From an uncultured Anaerolineales bacterium (GTDB lineage: Bacteria > Planctomycetota > Phycisphaerae > FEN-1346), in the NCBI GenBank assembly GCA_964449275.1, contig CAYVAM010000001.1:585-64584 (forward strand): a stretch of 64,000 nt of DNA. Direction: 5' to 3'. A program made the position numbers and the translations under genes. Below, in pieces: positions 80 through 22,305 of this stretch. Numbering within the stretch: position 1 is the stretch's first letter; each line of letters opens with the position of its first letter. Below the pieces are notes generated by a model. That model was not told the DNA's origin. It saw nothing but the letters and a program-made list of their open reading frames with translations, and did not search any database.

Positions 80-2980
80 ATGGCTAACGTCTACAAGAGC
101 ACGCTCAACCTGCCGAAGACGGCCTTCCCGATGAAGGCCAACCTCGTCCAGCGCGAGCCCGAAACCCGCCGGCGCTGGGCCAGGATGGACCTGTATGGGA
201 TGATCAGGGCCGCCGCCCATCCCAAGGGCCGGTACATCCTCCACGACGGGCCGCCGTACGCCAACGGCGACATCCATATCGGAACGGCCGTCAACAAGAT
301 CCTCAAAGACATCATCGTCAAGTACAAGACGATGCAGGGTTACGATGCCCCGTTCGTGCCGGGGTACGACTGTCACGGCCATCCGATCGAGCACGCCGTG
401 CGCCGCGAACTCGGCCCGAAGGCCGGGGCGATGAGCCCCGTCGAGATCCGAAAGCGCTGCGAAGCCTACGCCCGCAAGTTCATCGGGCACCAGAGCGAGC
501 AGTTCCAGATGCTCGGCGTCCTCGGACGGTGGGACCGGCCGTACCTGACGCTCGCGCCCGCGTACGAGCAGCGCCAGATGGAGACCCTCGCCCACCTGGT
601 GGACCAGGGGCTCATCCATCGGGAACTTCGAGCCATCCACTGGTGCATGCACTGCGAGACCGCCCTCGCGGAGGCCGAACTGGAGTACGAAGACGACGAG
701 GGGCCGAGCCTGTACGTCCTGTTCGTCCTCACCGAGGACGCGGCGGCGAAGTTGCCCGACCCGCTCACCGGGCAGCGCGTCCACCTCATGATCTGGACGA
801 CGACGCCGTGGACCCTCCCGGCCAATATGGCCGTGGCTGTGCACCCGGACTATCGGTACGCTTTGATTCGCTACGAGAAGGACGGCGATAAGCGCTCGGC
901 GTTCGTCGCCGAGGACCTCGTGGACACAGTCACGCAGGGCGCGGGCTTGGAGAATGTCGAGACGCTCACAACATTCACCGGCGCGGAACTCCAGGGCCTG
1001 ACCTACGAGCATCCGTTCATGGGCCCACCCTCCGGTGCCGAGTTCCGCCAGGTCTGGGCCGATCCGACCATGGTCACCCTCGAAGAGGGCACGGGCCTCG
1101 TGCACTCGGCCCCCGGCCACGGCCGCGAGGACAACCTCATGGGCCTGAGGGTCGGCATCCCGACCTACAGCCCCGTCACGGCCCAGGGCCGCATGGACGA
1201 GACCGTCCCGGACTGGATCCAGGGCAAGACCGTCTGGGAAGCCAACGATATCATCCTGGACCATCTCGCCGAGAGCGGGCACCTGGTCGCCTCCGGCATG
1301 ACGGCCCACCGGTACCCGCACTGCTGGCGGTGCCGCGAGCCGGTCATCTTCCGGGCCACCGAGCAGTGGTTCGTTGCGCTCGACAAGGCGGACGAGGGCA
1401 AGAGCCTGCGGCACCGTGCGCTGGAGGCGGTGGGCGGCGTCCACTGGGTGCCGGCGTGGACGGAGTCGCGCATCCGCGCGATGATCGAGACGCGGCCCGA
1501 CTGGTGCATCAGCCGCCAGAAGGTCTGGGACGTGCCGATCCCCGCCCTGTACTGCAAGGCGTGCGGCCAGGCGCTCCTGACGGGCGACATGATGCGGGCC
1601 GCCGCCAAGTTCTACGGCCGGCATGGCTCCGGCGCCTGGTACGAGGCCACGGTCGAGGATGTCTTCGGCCAGGCACCGACGTGCCCGAATTGCGACGCCA
1701 CCGACTGGCGCATGGAGACCGACGTCTTCGACGTCTGGCTCGATTCGGGCGTATCCTGGGCCAGCGCGTGCGAGGTCGAAGGGTTCGACGTGCCGGTGGA
1801 ACTGTACATCGAAGGCTCCGACCAGCACCGCGGGTGGTTCCAGTCGAGCCTTATCATGGGCGTGGTGGCGCGCGGACAGCCGCCGTTCCGCACGTGCATC
1901 ACCCACGGGTTCGTCGTGGACGAGGAAGGCCGCAAGATGTCCAAGAGCCTCGGCAACACCGTCAGCGTGCTGGACGAGGTGAAGCGGCTGGGGGCGGACG
2001 TGGTGCGCCTGTGGACGTCGAGCGTCGATTACGCCGGCGACATCCGGGCCTCCGACACACTGATCTCGAGCCTCCAGGACGCCTACCGCAAGATCCGAAA
2101 CACCGTCCGCTTCCTGCTGGGGAACCTGGCGGATTTCGACGCCGGCGCGCACGCCGTCCAACCCGGCGGCCTGGAGGAGATCGACCGGTGGCTGCTCGCG
2201 CGGCTGCAGCGGCTGGTGGCCGACGTGACCGCCGAGATGGAGGCGTTCCAGTTCCACCGCGTGTACCAGTTGGCCCACCTGTTCTGCGTGAACGACCTGA
2301 GCGCCTTCTACCTGGACGTGCAGAAAGACGTCCTGTACTGCGACGCGACCGGCTCGCCTCGCCGCCGCAGCGCCCAGACGGCCATGGCCCAGGTGGCCGA
2401 GGTGCTGGTGCGGCTGGTGGCGCCGATCCTGGTGCACACGGCGGAGGAGGCGTGGTCGCATCTGCCTGCCCCCGCCGAGGGCGATGCTACTCTGCGAAGC
2501 ACGAGGCGCGAAGAGAGCGTCCACCTGGCCGCATGGCCGCAGGTCGATGCCAAAGTCCTCGACGAAGAACTCCTGGCCAAATGGGAATGGCTCCAGGACG
2601 TTCGGCGCAACGCCTACGCGGCGCTCGAGGTCTTCCGCCAGGAGGGCAAGTTCGACAAGCACACCGAGGCCCGGGTGGCGCTGGCCGTGGCCGACGCCTC
2701 GGAACTCGAGCGCCTCCGCGAAGTGGGCGCCGAGACGCTCGCCGACCTGCTCCTCGTCAGTGAACTCCTGCTCGTGGCGCCCGAAGAGGCCGAGACGCTC
2801 GAAGGTGAGAGGGCGATGGGCGACGCCGCCAACGGCAAGCGGTTACACTCGGCCACGTTGCTCGTCCAGGAGTACGCCCGCTGCGAGCGGTGCTGGAACT
2901 ATCGGGCGAGCGTCGGTGAGGCCGAACCCGAAGACCTCTGCACCCGGTGCCGCCAGGTCCTCGCCGAACAGACACGTTAG
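80..2980 (+). CDS. ileS: Isoleucyl-tRNA synthetase
   Basis: The 970-aa ORF carries the class I aaRS HIGH motif (PPYANGDIHIGTA), KMSKS (KMSKSLGN) and a C-terminal Zn-ribbon (CxxC...CxxC). The start is moved to ATG 80 (MANVYK) because GAGG lies 6 nt upstream. ATG 68 has no RBS. Confidence 0.9.
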   Translation: MANVYKSTLNLPKTAFPMKANLVQREPETRRRWARMDLYGMIRAAAHPKGRYILHDGPPYANGDIHIGTAVNKILKDIIVKYKTMQGYDAPFVPGYDCHGHPIEHAVRRELGPKAGAMSPVEIRKRCEAYARKFIGHQSEQFQMLGVLGRWDRPYLTLAPAYEQRQMETLAHLVDQGLIHRELRAIHWCMHCETALAEAELEYEDDEGPSLYVLFVLTEDAAAKLPDPLTGQRVHLMIWTTTPWTLPANMAVAVHPDYRYALIRYEKDGDKRSAFVAEDLVDTVTQGAGLENVETLTTFTGAELQGLTYEHPFMGPPSGAEFRQVWADPTMVTLEEGTGLVHSAPGHGREDNLMGLRVGIPTYSPVTAQGRMDETVPDWIQGKTVWEANDIILDHLAESGHLVASGMTAHRYPHCWRCREPVIFRATEQWFVALDKADEGKSLRHRALEAVGGVHWVPAWTESRIRAMIETRPDWCISRQKVWDVPIPALYCKACGQALLTGDMMRAAAKFYGRHGSGAWYEATVEDVFGQAPTCPNCDATDWRMETDVFDVWLDSGVSWASACEVEGFDVPVELYIEGSDQHRGWFQSSLIMGVVARGQPPFRTCITHGFVVDEEGRKMSKSLGNTVSVLDEVKRLGADVVRLWTSSVDYAGDIRASDTLISSLQDAYRKIRNTVRFLLGNLADFDAGAHAVQPGGLEEIDRWLLARLQRLVADVTAEMEAFQFHRVYQLAHLFCVNDLSAFYLDVQKDVLYCDATGSPRRRSAQTAMAQVAEVLVRLVAPILVHTAEEAWSHLPAPAEGDATLRSTRREESVHLAAWPQVDAKVLDEELLAKWEWLQDVRRNAYAALEVFRQEGKFDKHTEARVALAVADASELERLREVGAETLADLLLVSELLLVAPEEAETLEGERAMGDAANGKRLHSATLLVQEYARCERCWNYRASVGEAEPEDLCTRCRQVLAEQTR

Positions 2981-3066
2981 CCGGCGGGCTTGCCCGCCGC
3001 GTGCTGCCGACCCTGCCGCGGAAGCGGCTCGACAAGACACGTTAGCCGGCGGGCTTGCCCGCCGCG
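2966..3066. repeat. Tandem duplication (63-bp period) of the ileS 3' end plus a REP-like GC hairpin, CGTTAGCCGGCGGGCTTGCCCGCCGCG
   Basis: The segment cga(a/c)a(g/a)gacacgttagccggcgggcttgcccgccgcg occurs twice, at 2966-3002 and 3029-3066. The hairpin stem is GGCGGGC/GCCCGCC. The same core recurs at 22163-22281, 28952-28984 and 47271-47306. Confidence 0.8.
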
Positions 3067-3081
3067 TTCAAGGAGTTTCGC

Positions 3082-4299
3082 ATGACCGGCGAACCACAAC
3101 CCGTTTCGCGAACCCAGGAAACCATCGACCGCTTCAACCGGTACGTCATCGGCAACTACACGCGGCTGCCCATCGTGGCGGTCCGGGGCGAGGGGCCGTA
3201 CCTCTGGGACGCCGACGGCAAGCGTTACCTGGACCTTTTCAGCGGCTGGGCCGTGACGGGCGTGGGCCACTGTCACCCGCGTCTGGTGGAGGCCATCCGC
3301 GAGCAGGCCGGCAAACTTATCTACATGCCGAACACATGGTACACCGAACCGCAGGGCCGCCTCGCCCAGTGGATCGCCGAGACGGGCTTCGGCGGCAAGT
3401 CGTTCTTCTGCAACTCCGGGACCGAGGCGAACGAGGCCGCCATCAAACTGGCACGCATCCATACGCCGCCGGGCAAGTACAAGATCATCACCTTCGAGAA
3501 CGGTTTCCACGGCCGCACCTTCGCCTCCATCACGGCGACGGCCCAACCGAAATATCACCAGGGCTTCCAGCCGCTGGTCCCGGGCTTCGTGTACGCCCCG
3601 CTGAACGACATGGAGGCGGTCGAGAAACTCGCCGACGAGGAAACCTGCGCTATCCTCGTCGAGCCGATCCAGGGCGAGGGCGGTGTCAACCTCGCTCGCG
3701 CCGAATGGCTCAAGGCGCTGCGCGACCTGTGCGACCAGCGCGGCATGGTGCTGATCTTCGACGAGGTCCAGACCGGCGTCGGACGTTGCGGCACGTGGTG
3801 GGGCTACCAGGTGCCCGGTGTCGTGCCGGACATTATGACGATGGCCAAGCAGTTGGCGGGCGGGACGGCCATCGGCGCCATGTGCGCCCGCGAAGAGGTG
3901 GCCGCCAGCCTGGTCCCCGGCACGCACGCCGCCACGTTCGGCGGCAACCCGCTTGCCGCCGCCGCCGGCTGCGCCGTCTTCGAGATCATCCGCGACGAGA
4001 ACCTCCTGGAGAACGCCAACCAGATGGGGACGTACCTGCGGCAGCAACTGCTGGAAATGAAGCAGGAGACGCCGCTCATTGCCGAGGTGCGCGGCGTCGG
4101 CCTCATGATAGGCGCGGACCTGACGCAGAACGGGGCGGACCTGGCGGCCAAGTGCCTCGACAAGGGCCTCCACATCAACTGCACGCACGAGACCGTGCTG
4201 CGGATCATGCCGCCCCTGATCATCACGCGCGAACAACTGGACGAGGGCCTCGCCATCCTGCGTGAGGCCCTGAGCGAATGGCAGGCGCAGGGCAACTAG
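3082..4299 (+). CDS. argD: Acetylornithine aminotransferase (class III PLP aminotransferase)
   Basis: Class III aminotransferase N-terminal signature (LFSGWAVTGVGHCHPRLVEA...NSGTEANEAAIKLAR) and the EVQTGVGRCG region. AAGGAG RBS lies before ATG 3082. The track's earlier start at 3055 overlaps the REP element. Confidence 0.8.
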   Translation: MTGEPQPVSRTQETIDRFNRYVIGNYTRLPIVAVRGEGPYLWDADGKRYLDLFSGWAVTGVGHCHPRLVEAIREQAGKLIYMPNTWYTEPQGRLAQWIAETGFGGKSFFCNSGTEANEAAIKLARIHTPPGKYKIITFENGFHGRTFASITATAQPKYHQGFQPLVPGFVYAPLNDMEAVEKLADEETCAILVEPIQGEGGVNLARAEWLKALRDLCDQRGMVLIFDEVQTGVGRCGTWWGYQVPGVVPDIMTMAKQLAGGTAIGAMCAREEVAASLVPGTHAATFGGNPLAAAAGCAVFEIIRDENLLENANQMGTYLRQQLLEMKQETPLIAEVRGVGLMIGADLTQNGADLAAKCLDKGLHINCTHETVLRIMPPLIITREQLDEGLAILREALSEWQAQGN

Positions 4300-5068: not shown

Positions 5069-5141
5069 CCGCCACGCTTGCCGAAGATCCGCTGCGGCGG
5101 GCGCGGCGTGTTCGACTGCGGCTGCCAAAGGGAGGAGTTAC

Positions 5142-6314
5142 ATGAACAGCCCCCTCCGCCGCTCGCGACACGTTGCGGCACAGGCCCTGACCCTCGCCGC
5201 TGTGGCCGTCCTCGCCGCCGGTTGCAGGCTGAGCGAGCAACGTAAACTCACCGTCGTCTTGGTCGAATACAAGGGGCCCGAGGCCGTCGCCAGCGCCCAG
5301 CGACTCGTCAAGGAACTCTCGGCGCAAGGCTTGCCCGACGTCTTCACCGTTGAGGGCGCCGAGTACGCCAGCGTCTGCGTCGGCCGATACAACTCGTGGA
5401 AGGACGCCGACGCCGACGCCATGCTCAAACGCGTCCGCGTCATCCGCGACGCTCGGGGGCAGTATCCGTTCGCCGGCGTCCTGCTGGTGCCGGTGCCCGA
5501 ACCGCTGCCGAAGAACCCCTGGCCGCTCGAGCAGGCCGACGGTCTGTTCACCCTCCACGTCGGCAGTTGGGAGGCCCCCGGCCGTATGGCCAGCGCCCAG
5601 CGGTACGCCGGCAGCCTGAGGTCGCGCGGGTACGAAGCATACGCCTACCACGGGCCGCGGCTCAGCATGGTCACCCTCGGCGCGTTCGGGATGCGAATCT
5701 TCGACGATCCCGGCAAGGTCGGCCGGCCGAAGGCCAAACCGAAGATCATCGACCCGAAGGTCCTGGGCCTCATCAAGAAGTTCCCGCGCATGCGTCTGGA
5801 AGGGCAGGAGACCCCGCCCGAAGCGCACGTGCAGACGCAACTGGTCAGGGTTCCGGGAAAGGAACCCGCAGGGTCCGCCGTCGCCCGGTCCAGGTCGCTC
5901 TATCGGCTCACGATTCTGTTCGTGGACACCAAGACGGGCCTGGCCCAGGGCCGCATGCGGGCGTCGGGCGTTGCGCAGGGCAAGGCTGAACTGCCGACGC
6001 TTGTCGGCGCACTCGTCAAGCAACTGATGGCCGGCCTCCCGCGGGACAAGGTCGCTCGTGTCGGCGTGGTCGGCGTTCTGGCAGCCGACCCGGCCTCCGC
6101 CAAGGACGGCGTGGACGCCACGGCACTGGAGGCCCTGAACGCCGCCCTGCGGGCCGCCGGCGCCGGCAGGATCCGCCTCTTCAGCCAGGAAGGTACGCGA
6201 CAGATGCTCGACGCGGCGGGGCTGAAGTCCGAAGACATCCTTCGCGATCCCCGACCGGTCAAGGGATTCGAAGCGCTCGACTTGCTCGTCGTCGGCTCGG
6301 TCAAGGCGTTCTAA
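5142..6314 (+). CDS. Lipoprotein with two SPOR-like (sporulation-related repeat) domains
   Basis: Signal peptide plus lipobox (LAAGC). Two roughly 70-aa repeats have a SPOR-like beta-alpha-beta-beta pattern (YASVCVGRYNSWKDADA...; FTLHVGSWEAPGRMASAQRYAGSL...). GGGAGGA RBS is present. Confidence 0.45.
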   Translation: MNSPLRRSRHVAAQALTLAAVAVLAAGCRLSEQRKLTVVLVEYKGPEAVASAQRLVKELSAQGLPDVFTVEGAEYASVCVGRYNSWKDADADAMLKRVRVIRDARGQYPFAGVLLVPVPEPLPKNPWPLEQADGLFTLHVGSWEAPGRMASAQRYAGSLRSRGYEAYAYHGPRLSMVTLGAFGMRIFDDPGKVGRPKAKPKIIDPKVLGLIKKFPRMRLEGQETPPEAHVQTQLVRVPGKEPAGSAVARSRSLYRLTILFVDTKTGLAQGRMRASGVAQGKAELPTLVGALVKQLMAGLPRDKVARVGVVGVLAADPASAKDGVDATALEALNAALRAAGAGRIRLFSQEGTRQMLDAAGLKSEDILRDPRPVKGFEALDLLVVGSVKAF

Positions 6315-15276: not shown

Positions 15277-15410
15277 GCGGACACTTCCTTCTGACGCCGA
15301 CCTGTGTGGGGAAGTTTACCGCGCCCAGGTCGGTCGCGGCCACGCAAATCCGCCCAGCCGCGCGGGCGCCGGGCGCGACTGACGCAAAGACGTTCGCAGC
15401 AAATCAGGTC

Positions 15411-15439
15411 TTGCAACGACGCGGGGCTCCCGGCATAAT
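15411..15439 (+). promoter_or_regulatory. Sigma70-like promoter: -35 TTGCAA, 17-nt spacer, -10 CATAAT
   Basis: Located 52 nt upstream of the 15491 start. Confidence 0.4.
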
Positions 15440-15490
15440 GGCCGCCGATGGTCCACGACGGCGCCGGGTCGGGTTAGGTGGGGAGCCCTG

Positions 15491-16621
15491 ATGAGCGTCT
15501 ACATTAAGACGAAGCCGAGCGCCCCCGCCCAGGGTCCCTTTACCCGGACGCAACTCAAAGGCCTCGCCACGTCCGGGCAACTGAAGGCCCATTACCTGCT
15601 GTCGAAGGACATGAAGACGTGGTACCGGCTCCAGAACGTCCGAGGCCTCCTGGCTTCGCAGGGCGCTGCGGCCGGCACGGCGGCTGGACCGCCGGGCGCC
15701 GCAGCAGAAGCGACCGCGGCAGCCCCCGCCGCTGACTCGATACCCGTGGCAGAGCGGATGCCGCCCGCAGCAGGTCCGCCCGCAGCCGAGCCGGCCGGAG
15801 CGAAGCCCGACCTGATGGCAACCCTGCGAGCCAGGCCGCTGCTGCTTGCCCTGATGGCAGGCCTGGCCGGCGCCCTGCTCGTCGCGCTGATCGTCATCGT
15901 GTGCCTTCTGTTCGCCGGCGGCGGGGACGGCGGACCACCGCCCGCGCCGGCCGTCACGCCGCCGGCCGGGCAGCCGACCACGCCGACACCTCCTGCGACT
16001 ACGGCTTCGCCGCCCCAGCCGACCACCCCGGCGCCCGCGCCGCCCGCGCCGCCCCCACAGCCGCCGACGCCAACGCCCTCTGCGGTTACACCTCCCGCTA
16101 CGCAGCCGCCGCCGCCCGCGCCTCCCGCGCCCACGCCGCCGCCAACGCCTCCGGCGCCTGTGACGCCGCCTGCGACCACGCCGGCGACGCCTTCCGGACC
16201 TGTGGTTGTCCCGCCCCCTCGCGACGCCCCGACCCCGCCGCCGCCCAGGCCCAACACCAAGGCCGAGCCGGCGACGAAGCCGCAGGCGCTGGCGATCCTC
16301 ACCGTGATGTACGGCGGGCAACAAGTGCAGGCGATGGGGTCGCGCCTGTCGTTCACCCTGACGAACCGGACGGGGCTCGAGATCAAGTCGGCCAAAGGCC
16401 AAATCCGGCTGTACGACCCGTCCGGGGGCTACCTGGCCGGTCTGCCGGCCGAGATCGACGGGCCGATCAAGCGGGGCGGAACCGTGGTCAAAGAGGGCGT
16501 GTGGATGGAAGTGGGCGGCATGATCCTCGGAATGCTCAACACCTCGTCGAAGCAGATGAAGTTCAAGTTTGCCGCCGAGGAGATCACCTACACGAACGGC
16601 CGGACGGTGTCGTTCAAGTAG
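15491..16621 (+). CDS. Membrane protein with an N-terminal DUF4339/GYF-like domain, a long Pro/Thr/Ala-rich linker and a C-terminal beta-rich domain
   Basis: The N-terminus reads GPFTRTQLKGLATSGQLKAHYLLSKDMKTWYRL, a DUF4339-like pattern. A TM helix follows (LLLALMAGLAGALLVALIVIVCLLFA). A PT-rich tract is about 120 aa long. Confidence 0.5.
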   Translation: MSVYIKTKPSAPAQGPFTRTQLKGLATSGQLKAHYLLSKDMKTWYRLQNVRGLLASQGAAAGTAAGPPGAAAEATAAAPAADSIPVAERMPPAAGPPAAEPAGAKPDLMATLRARPLLLALMAGLAGALLVALIVIVCLLFAGGGDGGPPPAPAVTPPAGQPTTPTPPATTASPPQPTTPAPAPPAPPPQPPTPTPSAVTPPATQPPPPAPPAPTPPPTPPAPVTPPATTPATPSGPVVVPPPRDAPTPPPPRPNTKAEPATKPQALAILTVMYGGQQVQAMGSRLSFTLTNRTGLEIKSAKGQIRLYDPSGGYLAGLPAEIDGPIKRGGTVVKEGVWMEVGGMILGMLNTSSKQMKFKFAAEEITYTNGRTVSFK

Positions 16622-16689
16622 GCCGCGCCACTGCCTCTTCTGTCGCACGAGCCTATCCGACCGTGACGCCTGCATAGCGCGGCACAGAA

Positions 16690-16713
16690 CACGGCCGGGC
16701 AAGACCGGCCGTG
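16690..16713. terminator. Bidirectional terminator-like hairpin (CACGGCCGG-gcaaga-CCGGCCGTG) between convergent genes
   Basis: Perfect 9-bp GC stem between the 15491..16621 (+) and 16737..17912 (-) genes. There is no U-tract, which is common in high-GC genomes. Confidence 0.4.
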
Positions 16714-16736
16714 GCACATCTGTTGGGAAGGTTTCC

Positions 16737-17912
16737 CTACCCCTTCAAGCGCGAGCGCAGGTTGTCGAGGACGTTCATGAAGTTGATATAGGAATCGTAC
16801 GGCGACTCGTAGGGGTTGAAGTACTTGTGGACGTCGCCGTCGGCGAACCACTTGGTGCACATGTAGTAGAAGTGGTCGGAGGTCTGGAGCCGCCGCCAGT
16901 CGTCGAGCAGTTCGGCGTTGCCCGCCGCCTTGACCTCGTCTTCCATGCGGTACAGTTCGTGCAGGGCGTTGGACTGCATGGCGTTGCCGAGCCAGGCCGA
17001 CAGATCCCTTTCGGCATCGGCCCATGAGACCATGTGGGGGATGTCGAGTTCGGCCACGGGCTCGTATGCGGCAGCGGCGGCCGAGAGCGTCATGAAGTTG
17101 TTCTTGCCGCCGGCCAGGATGTGCTCGGGCAGGTGTTCCATGAACTCGAAGATACCCGAGTCGGCCCACTGATGCTCGCCGAACGTCTCGTAGTCCATGA
17201 ACAGGTTCACGACGTACCCGTTGCCGTTGACCTGGTCCACCCACTGGGCAAACGTCTCGGCGCGCAGCGGCCACTCGGGCCAGGACCGGTCGGAGAAACG
17301 GAACGCGATGTCGTCCGAGAGGCGATAGTTCTTCAGGAGCAGCCTGATGCCGTCGGTGCCGACGGGCCGGTACACGAAGGTCGGCGAGCGGTAGCCGAGG
17401 ATGTGGTCGGCGCCCTCGGCCGTGATGCCGGTGAAACCGAGTCCCTCGACGAAATGCGCCAAGTCGTTGTTGTAGATGAGTTCCGTGTTGCGGAACACCT
17501 TGGGGCGAACGCCGAACGCCTCGGCCATTCGGGCCGAGTGGGCCGTCACCTGCTCGCGGAACTCCTCCCGGCTGTACAGAAACGCCAGGCTGTGGTAGAA
17601 GGTCTCGGCCAGAAGTTCCACCTGCCCGGTATCCACCAGCGCTCGGAACGAATCGACCACCTCCGGCGCCCACCGCTCGAACTGCTCCAGCGCCACCCCC
17701 GTGATGGAGTAGGAGACCGCGAAATCCTTGCCGTACCGGCGCACGAGGTCCAGCATCAGCCGGTTGGTCGGCAGGTAGCAGCGAGAGGCGACCTTGCGGC
17801 AAAGTTCGGCGTTCTTGTAGTCGTCGAAGTAGTCCGTGCCGGAGTCGAACACGCTGTACCGACGCAGCCGGAACGGCTGGTGGACCTGGAAGTAGAAACA
17901 GACGCTTGCCAT
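16737..17912 (-). CDS. Glycoside hydrolase family 57 protein (alpha-glucan branching/amylase-type)
   Basis: GH57 N-terminal signature (CFYFQVHQPFRL) and an overall 391-aa GH57-like pattern. The overlapping 16588..17916 ORF is rejected as alternate-frame. Confidence 0.75.
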   Translation of the reverse strand: MASVCFYFQVHQPFRLRRYSVFDSGTDYFDDYKNAELCRKVASRCYLPTNRLMLDLVRRYGKDFAVSYSITGVALEQFERWAPEVVDSFRALVDTGQVELLAETFYHSLAFLYSREEFREQVTAHSARMAEAFGVRPKVFRNTELIYNNDLAHFVEGLGFTGITAEGADHILGYRSPTFVYRPVGTDGIRLLLKNYRLSDDIAFRFSDRSWPEWPLRAETFAQWVDQVNGNGYVVNLFMDYETFGEHQWADSGIFEFMEHLPEHILAGGKNNFMTLSAAAAAYEPVAELDIPHMVSWADAERDLSAWLGNAMQSNALHELYRMEDEVKAAGNAELLDDWRRLQTSDHFYYMCTKWFADGDVHKYFNPYESPYDSYINFMNVLDNLRSRLKG

Positions 17913-17931
17913 TCAAACGGCCTTCACGGAA

Positions 17932-17973
17932 GTTCAGAGTTCAAGGTTCAAGGTTCAAGGTTCAAAGTTCAAA
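17932..17973. repeat. Tandem heptamer array, (GTTCARR) x6, in the GH57 5' region
   Basis: The array reads gttcaga gttcaag gttcaag gttcaag gttcaaa gttcaaa. It is an inverted copy of the array at 18476-18531. Confidence 0.9.
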
Positions 17974-18027
17974 ACCAAGAGGCGACGGCAAGGGCCTGAA
18001 ACCGCGGACGGCAGCGATGCTACGGCC

Positions 18028-18432
18028 TCACGTGTACTTGCTCCCGCGCAATGGCGATCGCCGCAAGTGCTTCATCAACCCCGAGAGCATGCGACCAACT
18101 TCCAAGGCCTTGTCGTACACCAGGCGGTGTTCCGACGCGTCAATGTACCCTTGATCCAGCGCCACGCAGCAGTGGGAGCGGACCTCGCCGGAGGATCCTT
18201 TAGAGATGGCAAGGAACTGGAGAAACTCCTTGTTCCCCCCGCGCTCGAACCCCTCGGCGATATTGGCCATGGCCGAAACAGCCGCACTGCGCAACTGGTT
18301 TCGCAACGACCAGTCTTGGCCAAAAGCCGGCTTGGCCGTAATGCGGTACGCCAGCGCCACCAACTCCCTCGCTTTCTGCCAGACCTCGAGGTCCTCAAAT
18401 CGCTCGATCTTCCCCACGCCCCCACCCACCAC
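18028..18432 (-). CDS. Four-helix-bundle protein (TIGR02436-type, the family found in 23S rRNA intervening sequences)
   Basis: N-terminus reads IERFEDLEVWQKARELV...LRNQLRSAAVS...NIAEGFERGGNKEFLQFL.ISKGSSGEVRS, the family signature. The gene sits between the two inverted heptamer arrays. Confidence 0.8.
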   Translation of the reverse strand: MVGGGVGKIERFEDLEVWQKARELVALAYRITAKPAFGQDWSLRNQLRSAAVSAMANIAEGFERGGNKEFLQFLAISKGSSGEVRSHCCVALDQGYIDASEHRLVYDKALEVGRMLSGLMKHLRRSPLRGSKYT

Positions 18433-18475
18433 AAAAGGTCCAAAACTCCAACGCGAGCCTCAGGCGGTCGTTCAC

Positions 18476-18531
18476 TTTGAACTTTGAACTTTGAACCTTG
18501 AACTTTGAACCTTGAACTTTGAACCTTGAAC
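18476..18531. repeat. Tandem heptamer array, (YTTGAAC) x8, the reverse complement of GTTCAAR
   Basis: Eight units abut the GT4 stop codon. Together with 17932-17973 it forms inverted arrays bracketing the four-helix-bundle gene. Confidence 0.9.
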
Positions 18532-19856
18532 TACTTCCCGCCTTCCGTCGCATCCCGATAGACTTCCATACACGCCTGCCCGGCGTCGGTCCAGGCGAAT
18601 TTGCGGACCTCGAACGCCCCGTGTTCGCGGAGCGTTTTCTGGAGCGGCGGGTGCCGCAGCACCGCCACGATCTTGTTCGCCATCTCATGGATATCCCAGA
18701 AATCAACCTTCAACGCGTGCGTCAGAACCTCGCTCACGCCGCTCTGTTTCGAGATCAGCACCGGCACGTCGTGCTGGAGCGCCTCAAGCGGCGCCAGGCC
18801 GAACGGCTCGCTCACGCTCGGCATCACATACAGGTCGGCCATCTCGAAGACGCGGTCCAGGTCGGCGCCACGGAGGAACCCGGTGAACGTCACGCGGTGG
18901 CCGATGCCCATGGCGGCGGCCAGTTCGATCATCCGCCGGATCATGTCGCCGGAGCCGGCCATGACGAACTTGACGTTGTCCATAACCTCCAGCACCTTCT
19001 TGGCCGCCGCCAGAAAATACTCCGGGCCCTTCTGCATCGTGATGCGGCCGAGGAACAGAACGATCTTGTCGCCTCGCTCGATGCGGTTGACGCTCGTCCG
19101 GACCGGCTCGCCGTTGATGGTGATGGCGTTGTAAATGACGCGGCACTTCGACTTTGGCACGCCGTAGTGCCCGGTCACGATGCCGCGCGTCAGGCGGCTG
19201 ACGCAGATAACGCTCCGTGCCCCGTGCAGGCCGGCGCGTTCCACGTCGTAGACCCGCTGGTTCACGTGCAGGCCGCTTCGGTCGAACTCCGTGGAGTGGA
19301 CGTGCACGACGAGCGGCTTGCCCGTGAGCGCCGCCACGCTCAGGCCGGCCGGGTACGTCATCCAATCGTGCGCGTGGATGACATCGAACTCGTGCCGCCG
19401 CGCTACCTCCGCCACCAGGCGTGCGTACCGGTTGATCTCGCCGAAGAGGTCTCCCGCGTACATGTCCGGCCCGTTCGTGAGACCGAGACTGGTCGGCCCA
19501 TGGGGATCGAGGGCGGCCGCGAAGGCCTCCCCGGCGCTGGCCTGGCCGGCGTGCGTCTCGCGCCGCCGCTCTTCCCGGTATCGCGCTTCGGTCTGGTACG
19601 GGTCGAGGGCTGCGGCCACGGGGATGAGGCGGACGTGTTCCAGTCCCTCGACGGTCCAGTAAGCGGTCCGGCCCGGGTTATCGACCGCCGAGAGAACGTG
19701 GACGCGGTCGACCCGCCCGTCGGCCCCGCCGCGAGGGAGCACGAACAGGATATCCGTACCCAGATCGCTGAGGGCCTTGGTCAGGCCATAGCAGGCGGTC
19801 CCCAGACCGCCGCTTATGAAAGGCGGGAACTCCCACCCCAACATCAGGATTCGCAT
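18531..19856 (-). CDS. Glycosyltransferase family 4 (probable alpha-glucan/glycogen synthase-like)
   Basis: GT4 architecture: N-terminus MRILMLGWEFPPFISGGLGTA. EX7E region (SEPFGLAPLEALQHDVPV). Adjacent to GH57, as in alpha-glucan clusters. Confidence 0.75.
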   Translation of the reverse strand: MRILMLGWEFPPFISGGLGTACYGLTKALSDLGTDILFVLPRGGADGRVDRVHVLSAVDNPGRTAYWTVEGLEHVRLIPVAAALDPYQTEARYREERRRETHAGQASAGEAFAAALDPHGPTSLGLTNGPDMYAGDLFGEINRYARLVAEVARRHEFDVIHAHDWMTYPAGLSVAALTGKPLVVHVHSTEFDRSGLHVNQRVYDVERAGLHGARSVICVSRLTRGIVTGHYGVPKSKCRVIYNAITINGEPVRTSVNRIERGDKIVLFLGRITMQKGPEYFLAAAKKVLEVMDNVKFVMAGSGDMIRRMIELAAAMGIGHRVTFTGFLRGADLDRVFEMADLYVMPSVSEPFGLAPLEALQHDVPVLISKQSGVSEVLTHALKVDFWDIHEMANKIVAVLRHPPLQKTLREHGAFEVRKFAWTDAGQACMEVYRDATEGGK

Positions 19857-20088
19857 CTCGCCAGCCGCCTATGCCCCTCTCGCGCCCCGCCTCCGGCGAA
19901 GCGCGCCCGCAGTACAACCCCTCCGCTTTGCGTCCCTTGCACAAACCGCCACCCTGCCGGTTCACCAACTCCTATTCTATCATTCTATCCCCGGCCCGCA
20001 AGCCTGTCAAACGATAAGACACAATGGCCTCTGTCGCCCCGACCGACCCCCGGCCCGTCATGGCAAGTTTTTCTGGCGAGCGAAGGCG

Positions 20089-20320
20089 GTTGTAGCGCCG
20101 GGCTTTATGCCCGGCGGCCGTTGGCGGCGGCGCCGGCCAGGATGCGCCGGGGATAAACCCCGGCGCTACGGCCAAGGTTGTAGCGCCGGGCTTTATGCCC
20201 GGTCCCGATGTATCGGGATTGGCGGCGGCGCCGGCCACGATGCGCCGGGGATAAACCCCGGCGCTACGGCCAAGCCGCAGGAAATCGTCGCATGCCAGAA
20301 ATCGTTGCCACCCCCCCCCC
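20089..20320. repeat. Two tandem copies of the MITE-like element (20089-20175, 20176-20274) plus the conserved right-flank extension
   Basis: Same TIRs as at 10881. Copy 2 matches copy 1 at 10881 nearly base for base, including the internal tcccgatgtatcgggattggc hairpin. Confidence 0.85.
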
Positions 20321-20438
20321 TGCCCGTCGCGGCAGAATCACCTTGAACCGTCGCCGCACCTGTGGCAGGATGGCCGGAGTAACCTGACGCGGGCCGTGCA
20401 TAGCCCGATTCATCGCGAACGCTGACAGGAGGCAAGAG

Positions 20439-22163
20439 ATGAGACGCCGCCAGTTCCTTCGAACGGTGGGCCTCGGCGCCGCGGCACTCGCGGTGCCGTT
20501 GCGTCGGGTTGCCGCCGCAACGCCGGCCGCGACGCCGGGCATGTCGGGCGCCAAGCCCAACATCATTCTCATCATGTCCGACGACATGGGGTTCTCGGAC
20601 ATCGGGTGCTACGGCAGCGAAATCCATACGCCGAACCTCGACTCGCTCGCCGCCGACGGCGTCCGTTTCACCCAGTTCTACAACACCGCCCGGTGCTGCC
20701 CCACGCGGGCCAGCCTGCTGACCGGCCTGTATCCTCACCAGGCCGGCATCGGCCACATGATGGGCGACCGCCACCTGCCGGGCTATCACGGCGACCTGGG
20801 CAAAAACTGCGTCACCATCGCCGAGGCGGTCAAACCCGCCGGCTATGCCGCCTACATGGCCGGCAAGTGGCACGTCACGCCGCACACCAAACCCGACGGG
20901 CCGAAGTACAACTGGCCGCTCCAGCGCGGCTTCGACCGCTTCTTCGGCACCATCCACGGCGCGGGCTCCTTCTACGACCCCAACACGCTGACGCGCGACA
21001 ATACGCAGATCGCGCCGGACACCAAGGACTTCTACTACACAGACGCCATCAGCGACAATACCGCCAAGTTCATCCTCGACCACAAGCGCGATAAGGACGG
21101 CAAGCCGTTCTTCATGTACGTTGCCTATACCGCCGCCCATTGGCCCATGCACGCCAAGCCACGCGACATCGCCAAGTACAAGGGCCGCTACGACAAGGGC
21201 TGGCACGTCCTTCGCAAGCAGCGCTACGAGCGGATGCAGAAGATGGGCCTCCTGAAGAAACAGTGGGACATGTCGCCCCACGACAGCAAGCCGTGGGACG
21301 AGGTCTCCGACGAGGACAAGAAGTGGCACGTCCGCCGCATGGAAGTCTACGCCGCCATGGTCGATTCGATGGACGCTGGGATCGGCCGCATCATCGACGC
21401 CCTGAAGAAAACCGGCGCCTTCGAGAACACCCTCATCCTGTTCCTCGAGGACAACGGCGGCTGCGCCGAGGAGTACGGCAGCCGCGGGGCCGTCCGGCCC
21501 GACCCGTCGAAGCCGGTCAAACTGAAACCGATGGGGCCGGACGAACTCCAGAGACGGATGCAGCCCGCCGTCACGCGCGACGGCCGCCCCGTCCGCACCG
21601 GTCACGGCGTCATGCCCGGCCCCGCCGACACGTACATCGCCTATGGCAAAGAGTGGGCCAACGTCTCGAACACGCCGTTCCGCATGTACAAGCACTGGGT
21701 GCACGAGGGCGGCATCTCGACGCCGCTCATCGCGCACTGGCCGGCGGCGATTCGCCGAAAGGGCGACCTCGAACGCCAGCCGGGGCATCTCATCGACCTG
21801 ATGACCACCTGCGTGGACGTGGCCGGCGCCGAGTACCCCGCCGAGGCGGGCGGCATCAAAATCACGCCCATGGAAGGCCGCAGCCTCGTCCCCGCCTTCG
21901 CGGGCAAAACCATCCAGCGCGACGCCATCTACTGGGAGCACGAGGGCAACCGGGCCGTCCGCATCGGCAAGTGGAAACTCGTCGCACGCGGCGCCACCGG
22001 CCCGTGGGAACTCTATCGGATGGACGCCGACCGCAGCGAACTGAGCGACCTGGCGTCCGAGCAGCCCGACCGCGTCCGACAGATGGCCGCCCAGTGGGAG
22101 ACGTTCGCCAAAAAGGCTCACATGATCCCCTGGCCCTATAAAGGCAAGTACGCAGGCAAGTAA
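20439..22163 (+). CDS. Arylsulfatase, Cys-type, Tat-secreted
   Basis: Twin-arginine signal (MRRRQFLRTVGLGAAALA). Sulfatase CxPxR motif (CCPTRASLLTG). Also SDDMGFSD and GKWH. AGGAGG RBS is present. Confidence 0.85.
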   Translation: MRRRQFLRTVGLGAAALAVPLRRVAAATPAATPGMSGAKPNIILIMSDDMGFSDIGCYGSEIHTPNLDSLAADGVRFTQFYNTARCCPTRASLLTGLYPHQAGIGHMMGDRHLPGYHGDLGKNCVTIAEAVKPAGYAAYMAGKWHVTPHTKPDGPKYNWPLQRGFDRFFGTIHGAGSFYDPNTLTRDNTQIAPDTKDFYYTDAISDNTAKFILDHKRDKDGKPFFMYVAYTAAHWPMHAKPRDIAKYKGRYDKGWHVLRKQRYERMQKMGLLKKQWDMSPHDSKPWDEVSDEDKKWHVRRMEVYAAMVDSMDAGIGRIIDALKKTGAFENTLILFLEDNGGCAEEYGSRGAVRPDPSKPVKLKPMGPDELQRRMQPAVTRDGRPVRTGHGVMPGPADTYIAYGKEWANVSNTPFRMYKHWVHEGGISTPLIAHWPAAIRRKGDLERQPGHLIDLMTTCVDVAGAEYPAEAGGIKITPMEGRSLVPAFAGKTIQRDAIYWEHEGNRAVRIGKWKLVARGATGPWELYRMDADRSELSDLASEQPDRVRQMAAQWETFAKKAHMIPWPYKGKYAGK

Positions 22164-22281
22164 CGTGGTTAGCCGGCGGGCTTTGCGCGGCGGGTCAGGA
22201 GACCCGCCGCGCATAATGGGCAGCGCGTCGTCATCGAACTCGGCAAGTAACCTGGTTAGCCGGCGGGCTTGCCCGCCGCGC
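22163..22281. repeat. REP-like palindromes duplicating the sulfatase 3' end: cgtggTTAGCCGGCGGGC...CCCGCCGCG, with the nested palindrome GCGCGGCGGGTCAGGAGACCCGCCGCGC
   Basis: Copies are at 22163-22210, with a 19-bp nested insertion, and at 22250-22281. Both are preceded by a recopied ggcaagtaac stop-codon segment. Confidence 0.8.
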
Positions 22282-22305
22282 ATCTGTTACGAAAGCGAGC
22301 ATCGC

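Follow-up and report, generated by a model that had tools for sequence, protein, structure and literature searches.

We analysed a 64,000-nucleotide (nt) stretch of DNA from an uncultured Anaerolineales bacterium (contig CAYVAM010000001.1, positions 585 to 64,584; hereafter the window), in which a small gene for a four-helix-bundle (4HB) protein lies between the genes for a GT4 glycosyltransferase and a GH57 glycoside hydrolase and is flanked by two tandem arrays of a 7-nt unit in inverted orientation. A Pfam scan placed all three genes on the minus strand. We refer to the 4HB gene with its two arrays as the cassette, and to the upstream and downstream arrays as its 5' and 3' arms. The earlier note on this DNA had reported the inverted heptamer arrays, the assignment of the gene to TIGR02436 and its placement between GT4 and GH57 genes, and all three were confirmed: Tandem Repeats Finder (TRF) returned two period-7 arrays (Table 1), the protein scored 102.3 bits against TIGR02436 (cutoff 24), and Pfam families matched both neighbours. 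In transcript order, the locus reads GT4, (GUUCAAR)x8, 4HB, (YUUGAAC)x6, 17 nt, and the GH57 AUG, with the GT4 TAG stop (18531-18533) overlapping the first unit of the 5' arm.

The arrays stand out from the rest of the window. Their GC content is 34-36%, as against 67% for the window, and the doublet GTTCAARGTTCAAR has 12 matches, all within the two arrays and on opposite strands, where shuffled sequences would be expected to give 0.04. Neither TRF nor the doublet search found another GTTCAAG-type array elsewhere in the 64-kb window, in which the 4HB gene is also single copy. The arms, compared over 42-44 nt, are complementary at 91-95%. No Rfam family was matched at the cassette, the sole match being a chance-level MS2 operator (E 0.16).

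Within the cassette, the longest 4HB open reading frame (ORF) is 18028-18432 on the minus strand, with a start at 18432. However, the true start is probably the GTG at 18417, as judged from the sequence, because homologues begin MxxIxRFEDL and have a modal length of 129 aa. In the 5' spacer, a weak terminator-like hairpin precedes CCUUUUGUG (18463-18440), and there is also a G-rich stretch that may bind ribosomes. In comparison with the related locus L001, this spacer was 94.6% identical, the ORF 84.2%, and the 3' spacer 75.9%; the 5' spacer may serve to regulate the cassette, as RNA or as DNA. The one promoter-like site that we found on the minus strand within 16500-20500 lies upstream of GT4, and is a candidate source of a readthrough transcript.

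The 4HB protein is a bona fide member of the PF05635/TIGR02436 family by sequence and fold. Its only domain is PF05635 (107.4 bits, cutoff 33.8), and every homologue search returned thousands of clusters. The AlphaFold2 model (predicted local distance difference test score 89.9) has four long helices at residues 16-39, 41-63, 67-93 and 99-125, and a Foldseek search with it matched 2gsc (XCC0516) with template-modelling (TM) scores of 0.74-0.80 (query) and 0.89-0.93 (target) and a root-mean-square deviation of 1.3-2.0. It also matched 2rld (Bacteroides BT_0352; query TM score about 0.7) and, among the top matches as well, the bAvd protein of a diversity-generating retroelement (DGR), alone (4dwl) and in the DGR ribonucleoprotein (RNP; 8ube), with TM scores of 0.63-0.69. 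All four of these entries (2gsc, 2rld, 4dwl and 8ube) were deposited with chains A-E. As the modelled bundle has an up-down topology, we infer that the loop at residues 64-67, the basic, conserved C-terminal tail (residues 128 and 131) and the N-terminus share one end of the bundle.

Table 1. Features of the cassette and its host operon, in window coordinates.
Feature	Position	Strand	Basis or remark
Sigma-70-like promoter match, TTGACA-17-TAGAAT, 11/12, upstream of GT4	19982..20010	-	Consensus match only
GT4 / GlgA-like glycosyltransferase, upstream host gene, 441 aa	18531..19856	-	Pfam Glycos_transf_1, Glyco_transf_4, Glyco_transf_5
5' arm, (GTTCAAR) x 8.4 on sense strand, 34% GC	18474..18532	-	TRF, sequence; proposed cognate binding array
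5' spacer, arm to start codon, 56 nt	18418..18473	-	Sequence comparison with L001
4HB protein gene (PF05635 / TIGR02436), 129 aa from GTG 18417, pI 9.4	18028..18417	-	Hidden Markov model match
3' spacer, stop codon to 3' arm	17974..18027	-	Sequence
3' arm, (YTTGAAC) x 6.3 on sense strand	17930..17973	-	TRF; reverse complement of 5' units
GH57 glycoside hydrolase, downstream host gene, 391 aa	16737..17912	-	Pfam PF03065, E 7e-71

Cassettes across the family and at the GT4-GH57 junction

We searched an alignment of 35 homologues against one genome per species and obtained 80 loci (47-96% protein identity) from Acidobacteriota, Verrucomicrobiota, Planctomycetota, Bacteroidota, Nitrospirota, Brocadia, Syntrophales and others. 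Almost all of these loci carried period-7 arrays on both flanks, which TRF detected on both sides in 69 of 83, and TRF array density within 200 nt of the 4HB gene was about 12-fold above that in the rest of the same loci. In 76 of 81 loci, the best ungapped inverted match between the 130-nt flanks reached a score of 12 or more (median 20, about 30 nt), relative to control medians of 9 for flanks of different loci and 8 for more distant flanks of the same locus. The units varied by locus and included GTTCAAR, GTCCAAR, GTCCCAA, GTCTCAA, GTTTCNG, GTTTAAR, GTCCRCA, GTCGAAA and more. Altogether, more than 30 heptamer types were found, with a sense-strand upstream consensus of G-T-Y-Y-N-A-R in which GT was invariant in 72 of 76 loci, and throughout the family-scan loci the downstream array was the reverse complement of the upstream one. 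The earlier note had allowed that the arrays could be a generic promoter-proximal microsatellite. This is not what they are, as 76 of 81 loci carry them, with compensatory heptamer changes.

Some loci departed from this layout. Six (L030, L034, L037, L044, L052 and L061, at about 2850-3600 in each) had a third array, arranged as arm-gene-arm(same)-arm'(inverse) or as arm-arm'-gene-arm', which may allow alternative pairings or may represent a gene-less pair beside a cassette. The flanking repeats of L049 (Candidatus Brocadia pituitae) and L066 had periods of 9 and 8, respectively, rather than 7.

Distant family members had arrays of other units. In Xanthomonas and Stenotrophomonas, the XCC0516 family (PDB 2gsc) sits between accB and accC, where (GGGAATC)4 begins 4-6 nt past the accB stop and (NATTCCC)4 ends at the accC ATG. 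Units elsewhere were GGGAAAA and AGTCAGG (Nostoc), GGAGATA (Picosynechococcus), TTAGCTG (Calothrix) and GTTYAAG (Riemerella). On a plasmid of Picosynechococcus sp. PCC 7003 (L171) the cassette separates cas10/cmr2 from cmr3 in a type III-B system, and on a Pseudanabaena plasmid (L172) it separates cas6 from cas4. The latter has very long arrays in the layout A'-A-gene-A, with direct arrays of (AAAGCTA) x 16 upstream and (AAAGCCA) x 10 downstream (L172 1288-1969) and the inverse (TAGCTTT) further upstream. In Dissulfurirhabdus (L180), a further cassette has a BrxC/PglY-like gene on one side and a PglX-like methylase gene on the other. Such cassettes inside defence operons may explain the appearance of the family in surveys of CRISPR and defence neighbourhoods.

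In Xanthomonas and Stenotrophomonas (L163 2830-2873, L166 2881-2924), the pyrimidine-rich 3' arm abuts the accC ATG, with no Shine-Dalgarno (SD) sequence visible there, and SD-like GGAG motifs lie in the 5' arm. Cyanobacterial 5' arms (AGGAG, GGAGA) resemble ribosome-binding sites for the 4HB gene.

The fetched loci also held 58 period-7 arrays away from any 4HB gene. Adjacent gene-less pairs were inverted in 12 of 14 cases, with loops of 0-88 nt, and gene-less arrays matched the local cassette heptamer (at most one mismatch) in 40%, versus 11% for the heptamers of other loci. Dense gene-less array pairs of up to 20 units were seen in L040, a metagenome-assembled contig labelled Streptomycetaceae, at 586-693, 1921-2119, 5119-5205 and 5826-5963. 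Their arms are partly complementary, as where (GTTCAAA)n abuts (GAACCCG)n and 4 of 7 positions pair, and these clusters are explained neither by a model of pairing arms nor by a single-specificity model.

At the window's own junction, we compared 80 metagenomic loci encoding GH57 orthologues (60-93% identity). Without a cassette, the gap between GT4 and GH57 measured -8 to +30 nt in most loci (11 nt in L086 and L087, 1 nt in L090), whereas it was 547-618 nt with a cassette, in the window, L001, L002 and L003 and likewise in the later-found relatives L173-L179. Because the empty orthologous junctions are tight, this sequence comparison indicates that the GT4-GH57 adjacency is ancestral and that the cassette is an insertion. 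The cassette-less junctions thus bear out the proposal that the arrays bound an inserted one-gene unit. Of the further suggestion of a mobile or intervening element, the insertion with array boundaries stands. Recent movement does not, as the cassette is of long standing at this junction and has been passed on vertically.

The nearest genome record, L003 (CAZIJC010000055.1), is 96% identical in the 4HB protein and 95% in GH57. The ORFs of orthologous cassettes are under purifying selection (dN/dS 0.16-0.31), and copy numbers in the 5' and 3' arms vary among close relatives (8 and 6 in the window, 4 and 6 in L003, 4 and 4 in L001). An intermediate, L091, retains a 5'-truncated 4HB gene and the 3' arm. 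In L084 (1637-1916) and L085 (2167-2501), whose GH57 orthologues are 90% identical, the junction holds degenerate arrays, GGAGGCT/ACAGGCT x ~11 upstream and GGACTTT x 4 downstream, with no 4HB gene between them; these two contigs, which differ by a 55-nt spacer indel, look like a cassette that lost its gene. On two Nostoc plasmids, the gene is present at different junctions of one conserved operon. Pfam found no transposase domain, and comparison of occupied with empty junctions by eye found no target-site duplication. In L083, the closest locus by GT4 (98% identity), there is no cassette, and a 192-nt gap (2290-2500) with a duplicated GT4 3' end carries a different 23-nt inverted repeat (TTAGCCGCCGGGCTTGCCCGGCG), with a similar motif in the L084/L085 spacer; this may be a different small repeat element at the same junction.

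Cassettes fit closely into operons. We called ORFs with a simple greedy procedure, which agreed with public annotation in 9 of 10 checked cases, and among 61 cassettes between co-directional neighbours the 4HB gene ran in the same direction in 58 and in the opposite direction in 3 (p = 3e-14). Over the family loci, the 5' arm starts a median of 6 nt past the upstream stop, and the median distance from the end of the 3' arm to the first possible downstream start is 9 nt. The spacer between arm and start codon, which might be expected to be longer where the gene needs its own promoter, was no longer when the upstream neighbour was divergent (n = 7).

Covariation between a protein loop and the heptamer

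We calculated mutual information between the columns of the protein alignment (134-aa numbering) and the heptamer of each locus, with a permutation null. Residue 67 against heptamer position 3 was the lone outlier, at 0.95 bit relative to a permutation 95% maximum of 0.37. This residue lies in the loop between helices 2 and 3, F-E-R-x65-G-x67-K-E-F (context AEGFERGG[D/N]KEF), which in the window protein is FERGGNKEF, with Gly65 and Asn67. Asp67 accompanied C at position 3 in 33 of 33 loci and Asn67 accompanied T in 29 of 30, while Thr, Ser, Pro or Arg at this residue accompanied T in eight of nine. Fitch parsimony on the protein tree required 19 residue changes and 16 base changes, and the association therefore arose many times independently. 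Switches were seen in sister taxa (L007, Asp with GTCCCAA; L027, Asn with GTTCCAA; L009, Asp with GTCCCAA) and at the window's own junction, where the window has Asn67 and GTTCAAR, and L002 has Asp67 and GTCCAAG. A second rule linked Asp65 to C at position 5 (12 of 15) and Gly65 to A (32 of 41). Signals for residue 128 with position 4, residue 131 with position 5 and residue 108 with position 6 were weaker, and barely above the permutation null.

The covariation acts at the level of the protein. Pairing between the codon and the heptamer was considered as its cause and rejected, because the rule is codon-independent (GAC in 18 loci and GAT in 14 with C; AAC in 20 and AAT in 7 with T), because 4-nt complementarity was present in only 11 of 72 loci, and because the residue-65 rule has no base-pairing logic. 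An Asp carboxylate can accept a hydrogen bond from the N4 amino group of cytosine, and Asn, Ser or Thr can donate one to O4 of T or U; Asp-C rules also occur in the zinc-finger and TALE codes. The Asp/Asn and C/T change is thus a chemically sensible isosteric switch.

For six further proteins, we wrote down predictions before their DNA was examined, and all 12 were correct. As predicted, GGD loops accompanied GTCCAAR (P0014, P0082), GGN loops accompanied GTTCAAG (P0017) and ATTCAAG (P0083), and DGN loops accompanied GTTCCAA (P0023) and GTTACAA (P0041). Among the distant members, identical loops share repeat cores, with Calothrix and Pseudanabaena forming one such pair and Xanthomonas and Stenotrophomonas another, and different loops go with different repeats.

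Array copy number peaked sharply at 4-5 units in both arms (median 4.6), and the number of in-phase invariant GT cores had a mode of exactly five in each arm (36 of 72), relative to 1-2 in control segments. This five-core mode, together with the five chains in the closest structures, suggests by analogy one heptamer core per subunit of a pentamer. Rehm et al. reported that about four full units are preferred in Xanthomonas arrays and attributed this to G-quadruplex formation (PMC4692102). As heptamers that are not G-rich share the mode, G-quadruplexes are not its general reason.

What the cassette may be

Because the protein covaries residue by base with the heptamer, the arrays look like its cognate binding sites, and from these sequence patterns we consider it highly probable that the encoded protein recognises them. 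Our confidence is lower for the form of nucleic acid, the stoichiometry and the biological pay-off. Taken as a whole, the cassette is probably a self-recognising two-part module, consisting of a small basic 4HB protein and two inverted arrays of its 7-nt site. In this model, the protein would assemble as a pentamer like its solved relatives and bind each array with one heptamer core per subunit, reading the G-T-Y-Y-N-A-R strand, which is on opposite strands at the two cassette ends. The arrays would then act as end markers of the unit, like terminal inverted repeats recognised by their own protein. The consequence could be autoregulation of the cassette or its insulation within the host operon; arrays of about five units would be maintained, and matching arrays, including gene-less ones, might occasionally spread in the manner of the REP-RAYT elements discussed below. 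A long stem in the readthrough transcript would be possible but secondary. A role in alpha-glucan metabolism is unlikely.

Several points weigh against this model. Recognition is deduced from covariation, and the oligomeric state by analogy from the chain counts of deposited relatives. The window's own arms have 8-9 and 6 units, not five. For a closed pentameric ring to engage five tandem units, the strand would have to be single and flexible, which fits RNA or single-stranded DNA better than duplex DNA. The DGR Avd protein, the only family member with known partners, binds reverse transcriptase and RNA. The strong co-orientation with host operons and the stability of an arm-arm duplex would suit a role at the RNA level just as well. 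We saw no transposase, target-site duplication or sign of recent movement, and the S23p protein of the Coxiella intervening sequence is reported to be, in all probability, not made in vivo (PMC4990558).

The rival that survives best is an RNA element like the intervening sequences (IVSs) of 23S rRNA, in which the co-transcribed arrays would pair into a 30-45-bp double-stranded stem, leaving the 4HB mRNA in the loop, and RNase III would cut this stem. Pairing would then be the main cause of arm complementarity, with protein binding secondary, for instance in TRAP-like competition with the stem. We regard this as rather unlikely for the cassette as a whole, although a good deal is consistent with it. 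In the minimum free energy fold of the 661-nt transcript, the arms are paired with each other (z = -5.4), and the energy of the arm duplex is -63 kcal/mol. The 58:3 co-orientation and the way in which cassettes fill operon junctions point in the same direction, and no promoter-like site was found inside the cassette. The A-type arm is always 5', so that the protein could bind before the 3' arm is transcribed. There are also precedents: the Coxiella IVS has the same anatomy, being a 428-nt element with an S23p ORF and a 28-bp terminal stem that RNase III cuts in mid-stem (PMC4990558), and in Haemophilus influenzae RNase III cleaves an mRNA hairpin of which one arm is a transcribed heptamer simple sequence repeat (SSR; PMC12721329).

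However, three tests of pairing as the main constraint were negative. Across the family flanks, there was no wobble signature of sense-strand pairing (64 G.U versus 61 A.C mismatches, with 112 transversions), and arm lengths were uncorrelated (rho 0.12). If only the sense strand were read, the recognised positions should be conserved more strongly in the 5' arm, but the two arms did not differ: per-position conservation was 0.98/0.98/0.97/0.89/0.85/0.91/0.69 in the 5' arm and 0.96/0.95/0.97/0.85/0.90/0.92/0.69 in the 3' arm, taken as its reverse complement. Position 7 is free in both arms, so that a stem would frequently have a mismatch every 7 bp. Furthermore, pairing alone explains neither the residue-to-base covariation nor the five-core mode, and in Pseudanabaena the arrays on either side of the gene are direct, not inverted. 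Since both arms are constrained symmetrically, this comparison of sequences inclines us modestly towards DNA as the form that is recognised, either as a duplex or transiently single-stranded. The long hairpin that the earlier note foresaw in a readthrough transcript is therefore upheld as a thermodynamically predicted stem, and the 58:3 co-orientation fits readthrough, but it is not upheld as the main constraint on the arms.

Two other explanations have very little probability. That the arrays are ordinary slippage-prone microsatellites, near the gene by chance or hitch-hiking, would agree with the differing copy numbers of close relatives, with the gene-less arrays and with the over-representation of heptanucleotide SSRs in many bacterial genomes, for which slippage has been proposed as the cause, according to the statements quoted in PMC4692102 and PMC4679880; however, it does not account for the enrichment of arrays beside 4HB genes, a complementarity specific to the flank pair of each locus, a heptamer predictable from the loop, or a sharp five-core mode that neutral slippage would not be expected to give. 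That the gene encodes the Avd accessory protein of a DGR, with the repeats as part of that element, finds some agreement in a weak PHROG match ('Avd protein of DGR', E 1e-6), in the Foldseek matches to 4dwl and 8ube, and in precomputed PF22296 bAvd matches for some homologues, but it is very improbable given GT4 and GH57 neighbours without an adjacent reverse transcriptase, negative PADLOC and viral-contig searches, and arrays of short tandem heptamers rather than a template/variable repeat pair.

Relation to known systems and significance

The cassette and the 23S rRNA IVSs of Coxiella burnetii and Leptospira share a PF05635 protein (the S23p ORF in the IVS), a similar size (428-444 nt versus about 600 nt) and an ORF between terminal inverted repeats, which form a stem of about 28 bp in the IVS and are arms of 42-44 nt here. 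Both are embedded in and co-transcribed with a host transcript, and both have a sporadic distribution with later vertical inheritance (PMC4990558). However, the cassette lies between protein-coding genes and not in helix 9, 25 or 45 of 23S rRNA, and no rRNA match was found in 17500-19000. Its arms, unlike the IVS termini as described, consist of tandem heptamers, and purifying selection acts on its ORF, which covaries with these arms. The cassette is thus an IVS-like 4HB unit in an mRNA operon and, by location, not a member of the IVS class.

The window arrays belong to the same class of repeat as the heptamer SSRs of Xanthomonas (GGGAATC), Nostoc (GGGGAYT) and the cyanobacterial short tandemly repeated repetitive (STRR) families, which likewise have period 7, are intergenic and lie just past the upstream ORF; these have mostly about four full units, often form convergent pairs, and are described as of unknown function (PMC4692102). 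X. campestris has 186 GGGAATC arrays with about 70 convergent pairs, one of them in the groES-groEL junction (PMC4692102). Repeat #15 in the table of that paper is the 5' arm of XCC0516, listed there as unpaired beside a 'conserved' hypothetical gene. The published heptamer SSRs were read as G-quadruplex-forming and tied to no protein, whereas here a residue-to-base code ties them to a gene family. The TAACTGA repeats of Beggiatoa (PMC4679880) were rejected as relatives, since they are directly repeated ahead of start codons and show no connection with the 4HB family. In a literature coverage that was mostly without subscription journals, so that an earlier description is possible, we found no publication linking the PF05635/TIGR02436 family to heptamer arrays, and the protein-heptamer recognition code appears to be new.

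The REP/REPIN-RAYT system, which Nunvar in 2010 and Bertels and Rainey in 2011 are said to have described, reportedly also has a gene flanked by inverted short repeats and many gene-less hairpin copies. The likeness lies in the matching of gene and repeat type and in largely vertical inheritance. Gene-less arrays resembling the local cassette heptamer were seen in related loci and, as about 70 pairs, in Xanthomonas (PMC4692102); none lay in the 64-kb window. However, RAYT is an HUH tyrosine transposase acting on single-stranded DNA hairpins, while the 4HB protein has no recognisable catalytic motif, and RAYT repeats are palindromes of about 20 nt rather than tandem heptamers. Membership in REP-RAYT was rejected, as the sole domain here is PF05635, which is not an HUH (Y1) transposase.

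TRAP forms an 11-mer ring on GAG/UAG repeats, and the distal face of Hfq reads (A-R-N)n. The 4HB protein would resemble these in its proposed ring with one repeat unit per subunit, the units matching the subunits (five cores, five chains), and a TRAP-like competition with an alternative RNA hairpin is conceivable, although the folds are unrelated. The bAvd protein shares with the window protein the four-helix-bundle fold and a basic character, was deposited as a pentamer and is bound to nucleic acid in the DGR RNP. Unlike bAvd, the cassette occurs at operon junctions with flanking heptamer arrays, and not on phage contigs. We found no relative in 2.9 million viral contigs and no defence-system match with PADLOC. 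The five ORFs of 15404-22283 included no reverse transcriptase, and no search aimed at a template/variable repeat pair was made.

More broadly, and as a tentative proposal, the PF05635/TIGR02436 proteins could be programmable readers of tandem heptamers (a pentamer on five units; Asp-C, Asn/Thr/Ser-T, Gly-A) whose specificity is set by the short loop between helices 2 and 3, and the trans partners that create, size and spread the STRR and GGGAATC repeat families. Protein and repeat would then be partners much as RAYT and REPIN are, with IVSs and DGR Avd as special cases or offshoots. If true, a testable activity, recognition of 7-nt repeats, would be assigned to a huge family that carries no annotation beyond 'four helix bundle protein' or 'S23 ribosomal' and that takes in the DGR Avd relatives and the ORFs of rRNA IVSs. 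Heptanucleotide repeats, which have repeatedly been described without a mechanism or partner protein, would gain a link to that family. The residue-to-base code (Asp-C, Asn-T, Gly-A) predicted unseen loci and might be engineerable. As cassettes lie inside accBC, type III-B CRISPR-Cas, cas6-cas4, BREX, type II secretion/type IV pilus and alpha-glucan operons, they may affect polarity and expression stoichiometry in their hosts. Xanthomonas campestris, with its solved structure (2gsc) and about 186 mapped arrays, would be a tractable model.

Farther out in the window, neither the 696-aa ORF at 20193-22283, upstream of GT4, nor the ORF at 15404-16717 (minus strand) had a Pfam or NCBIfam match. 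The latter contains GC-rich tandem repeats (CGCCGC-type, with periods of 6, 9, 12 and 27) at 16101-16191.

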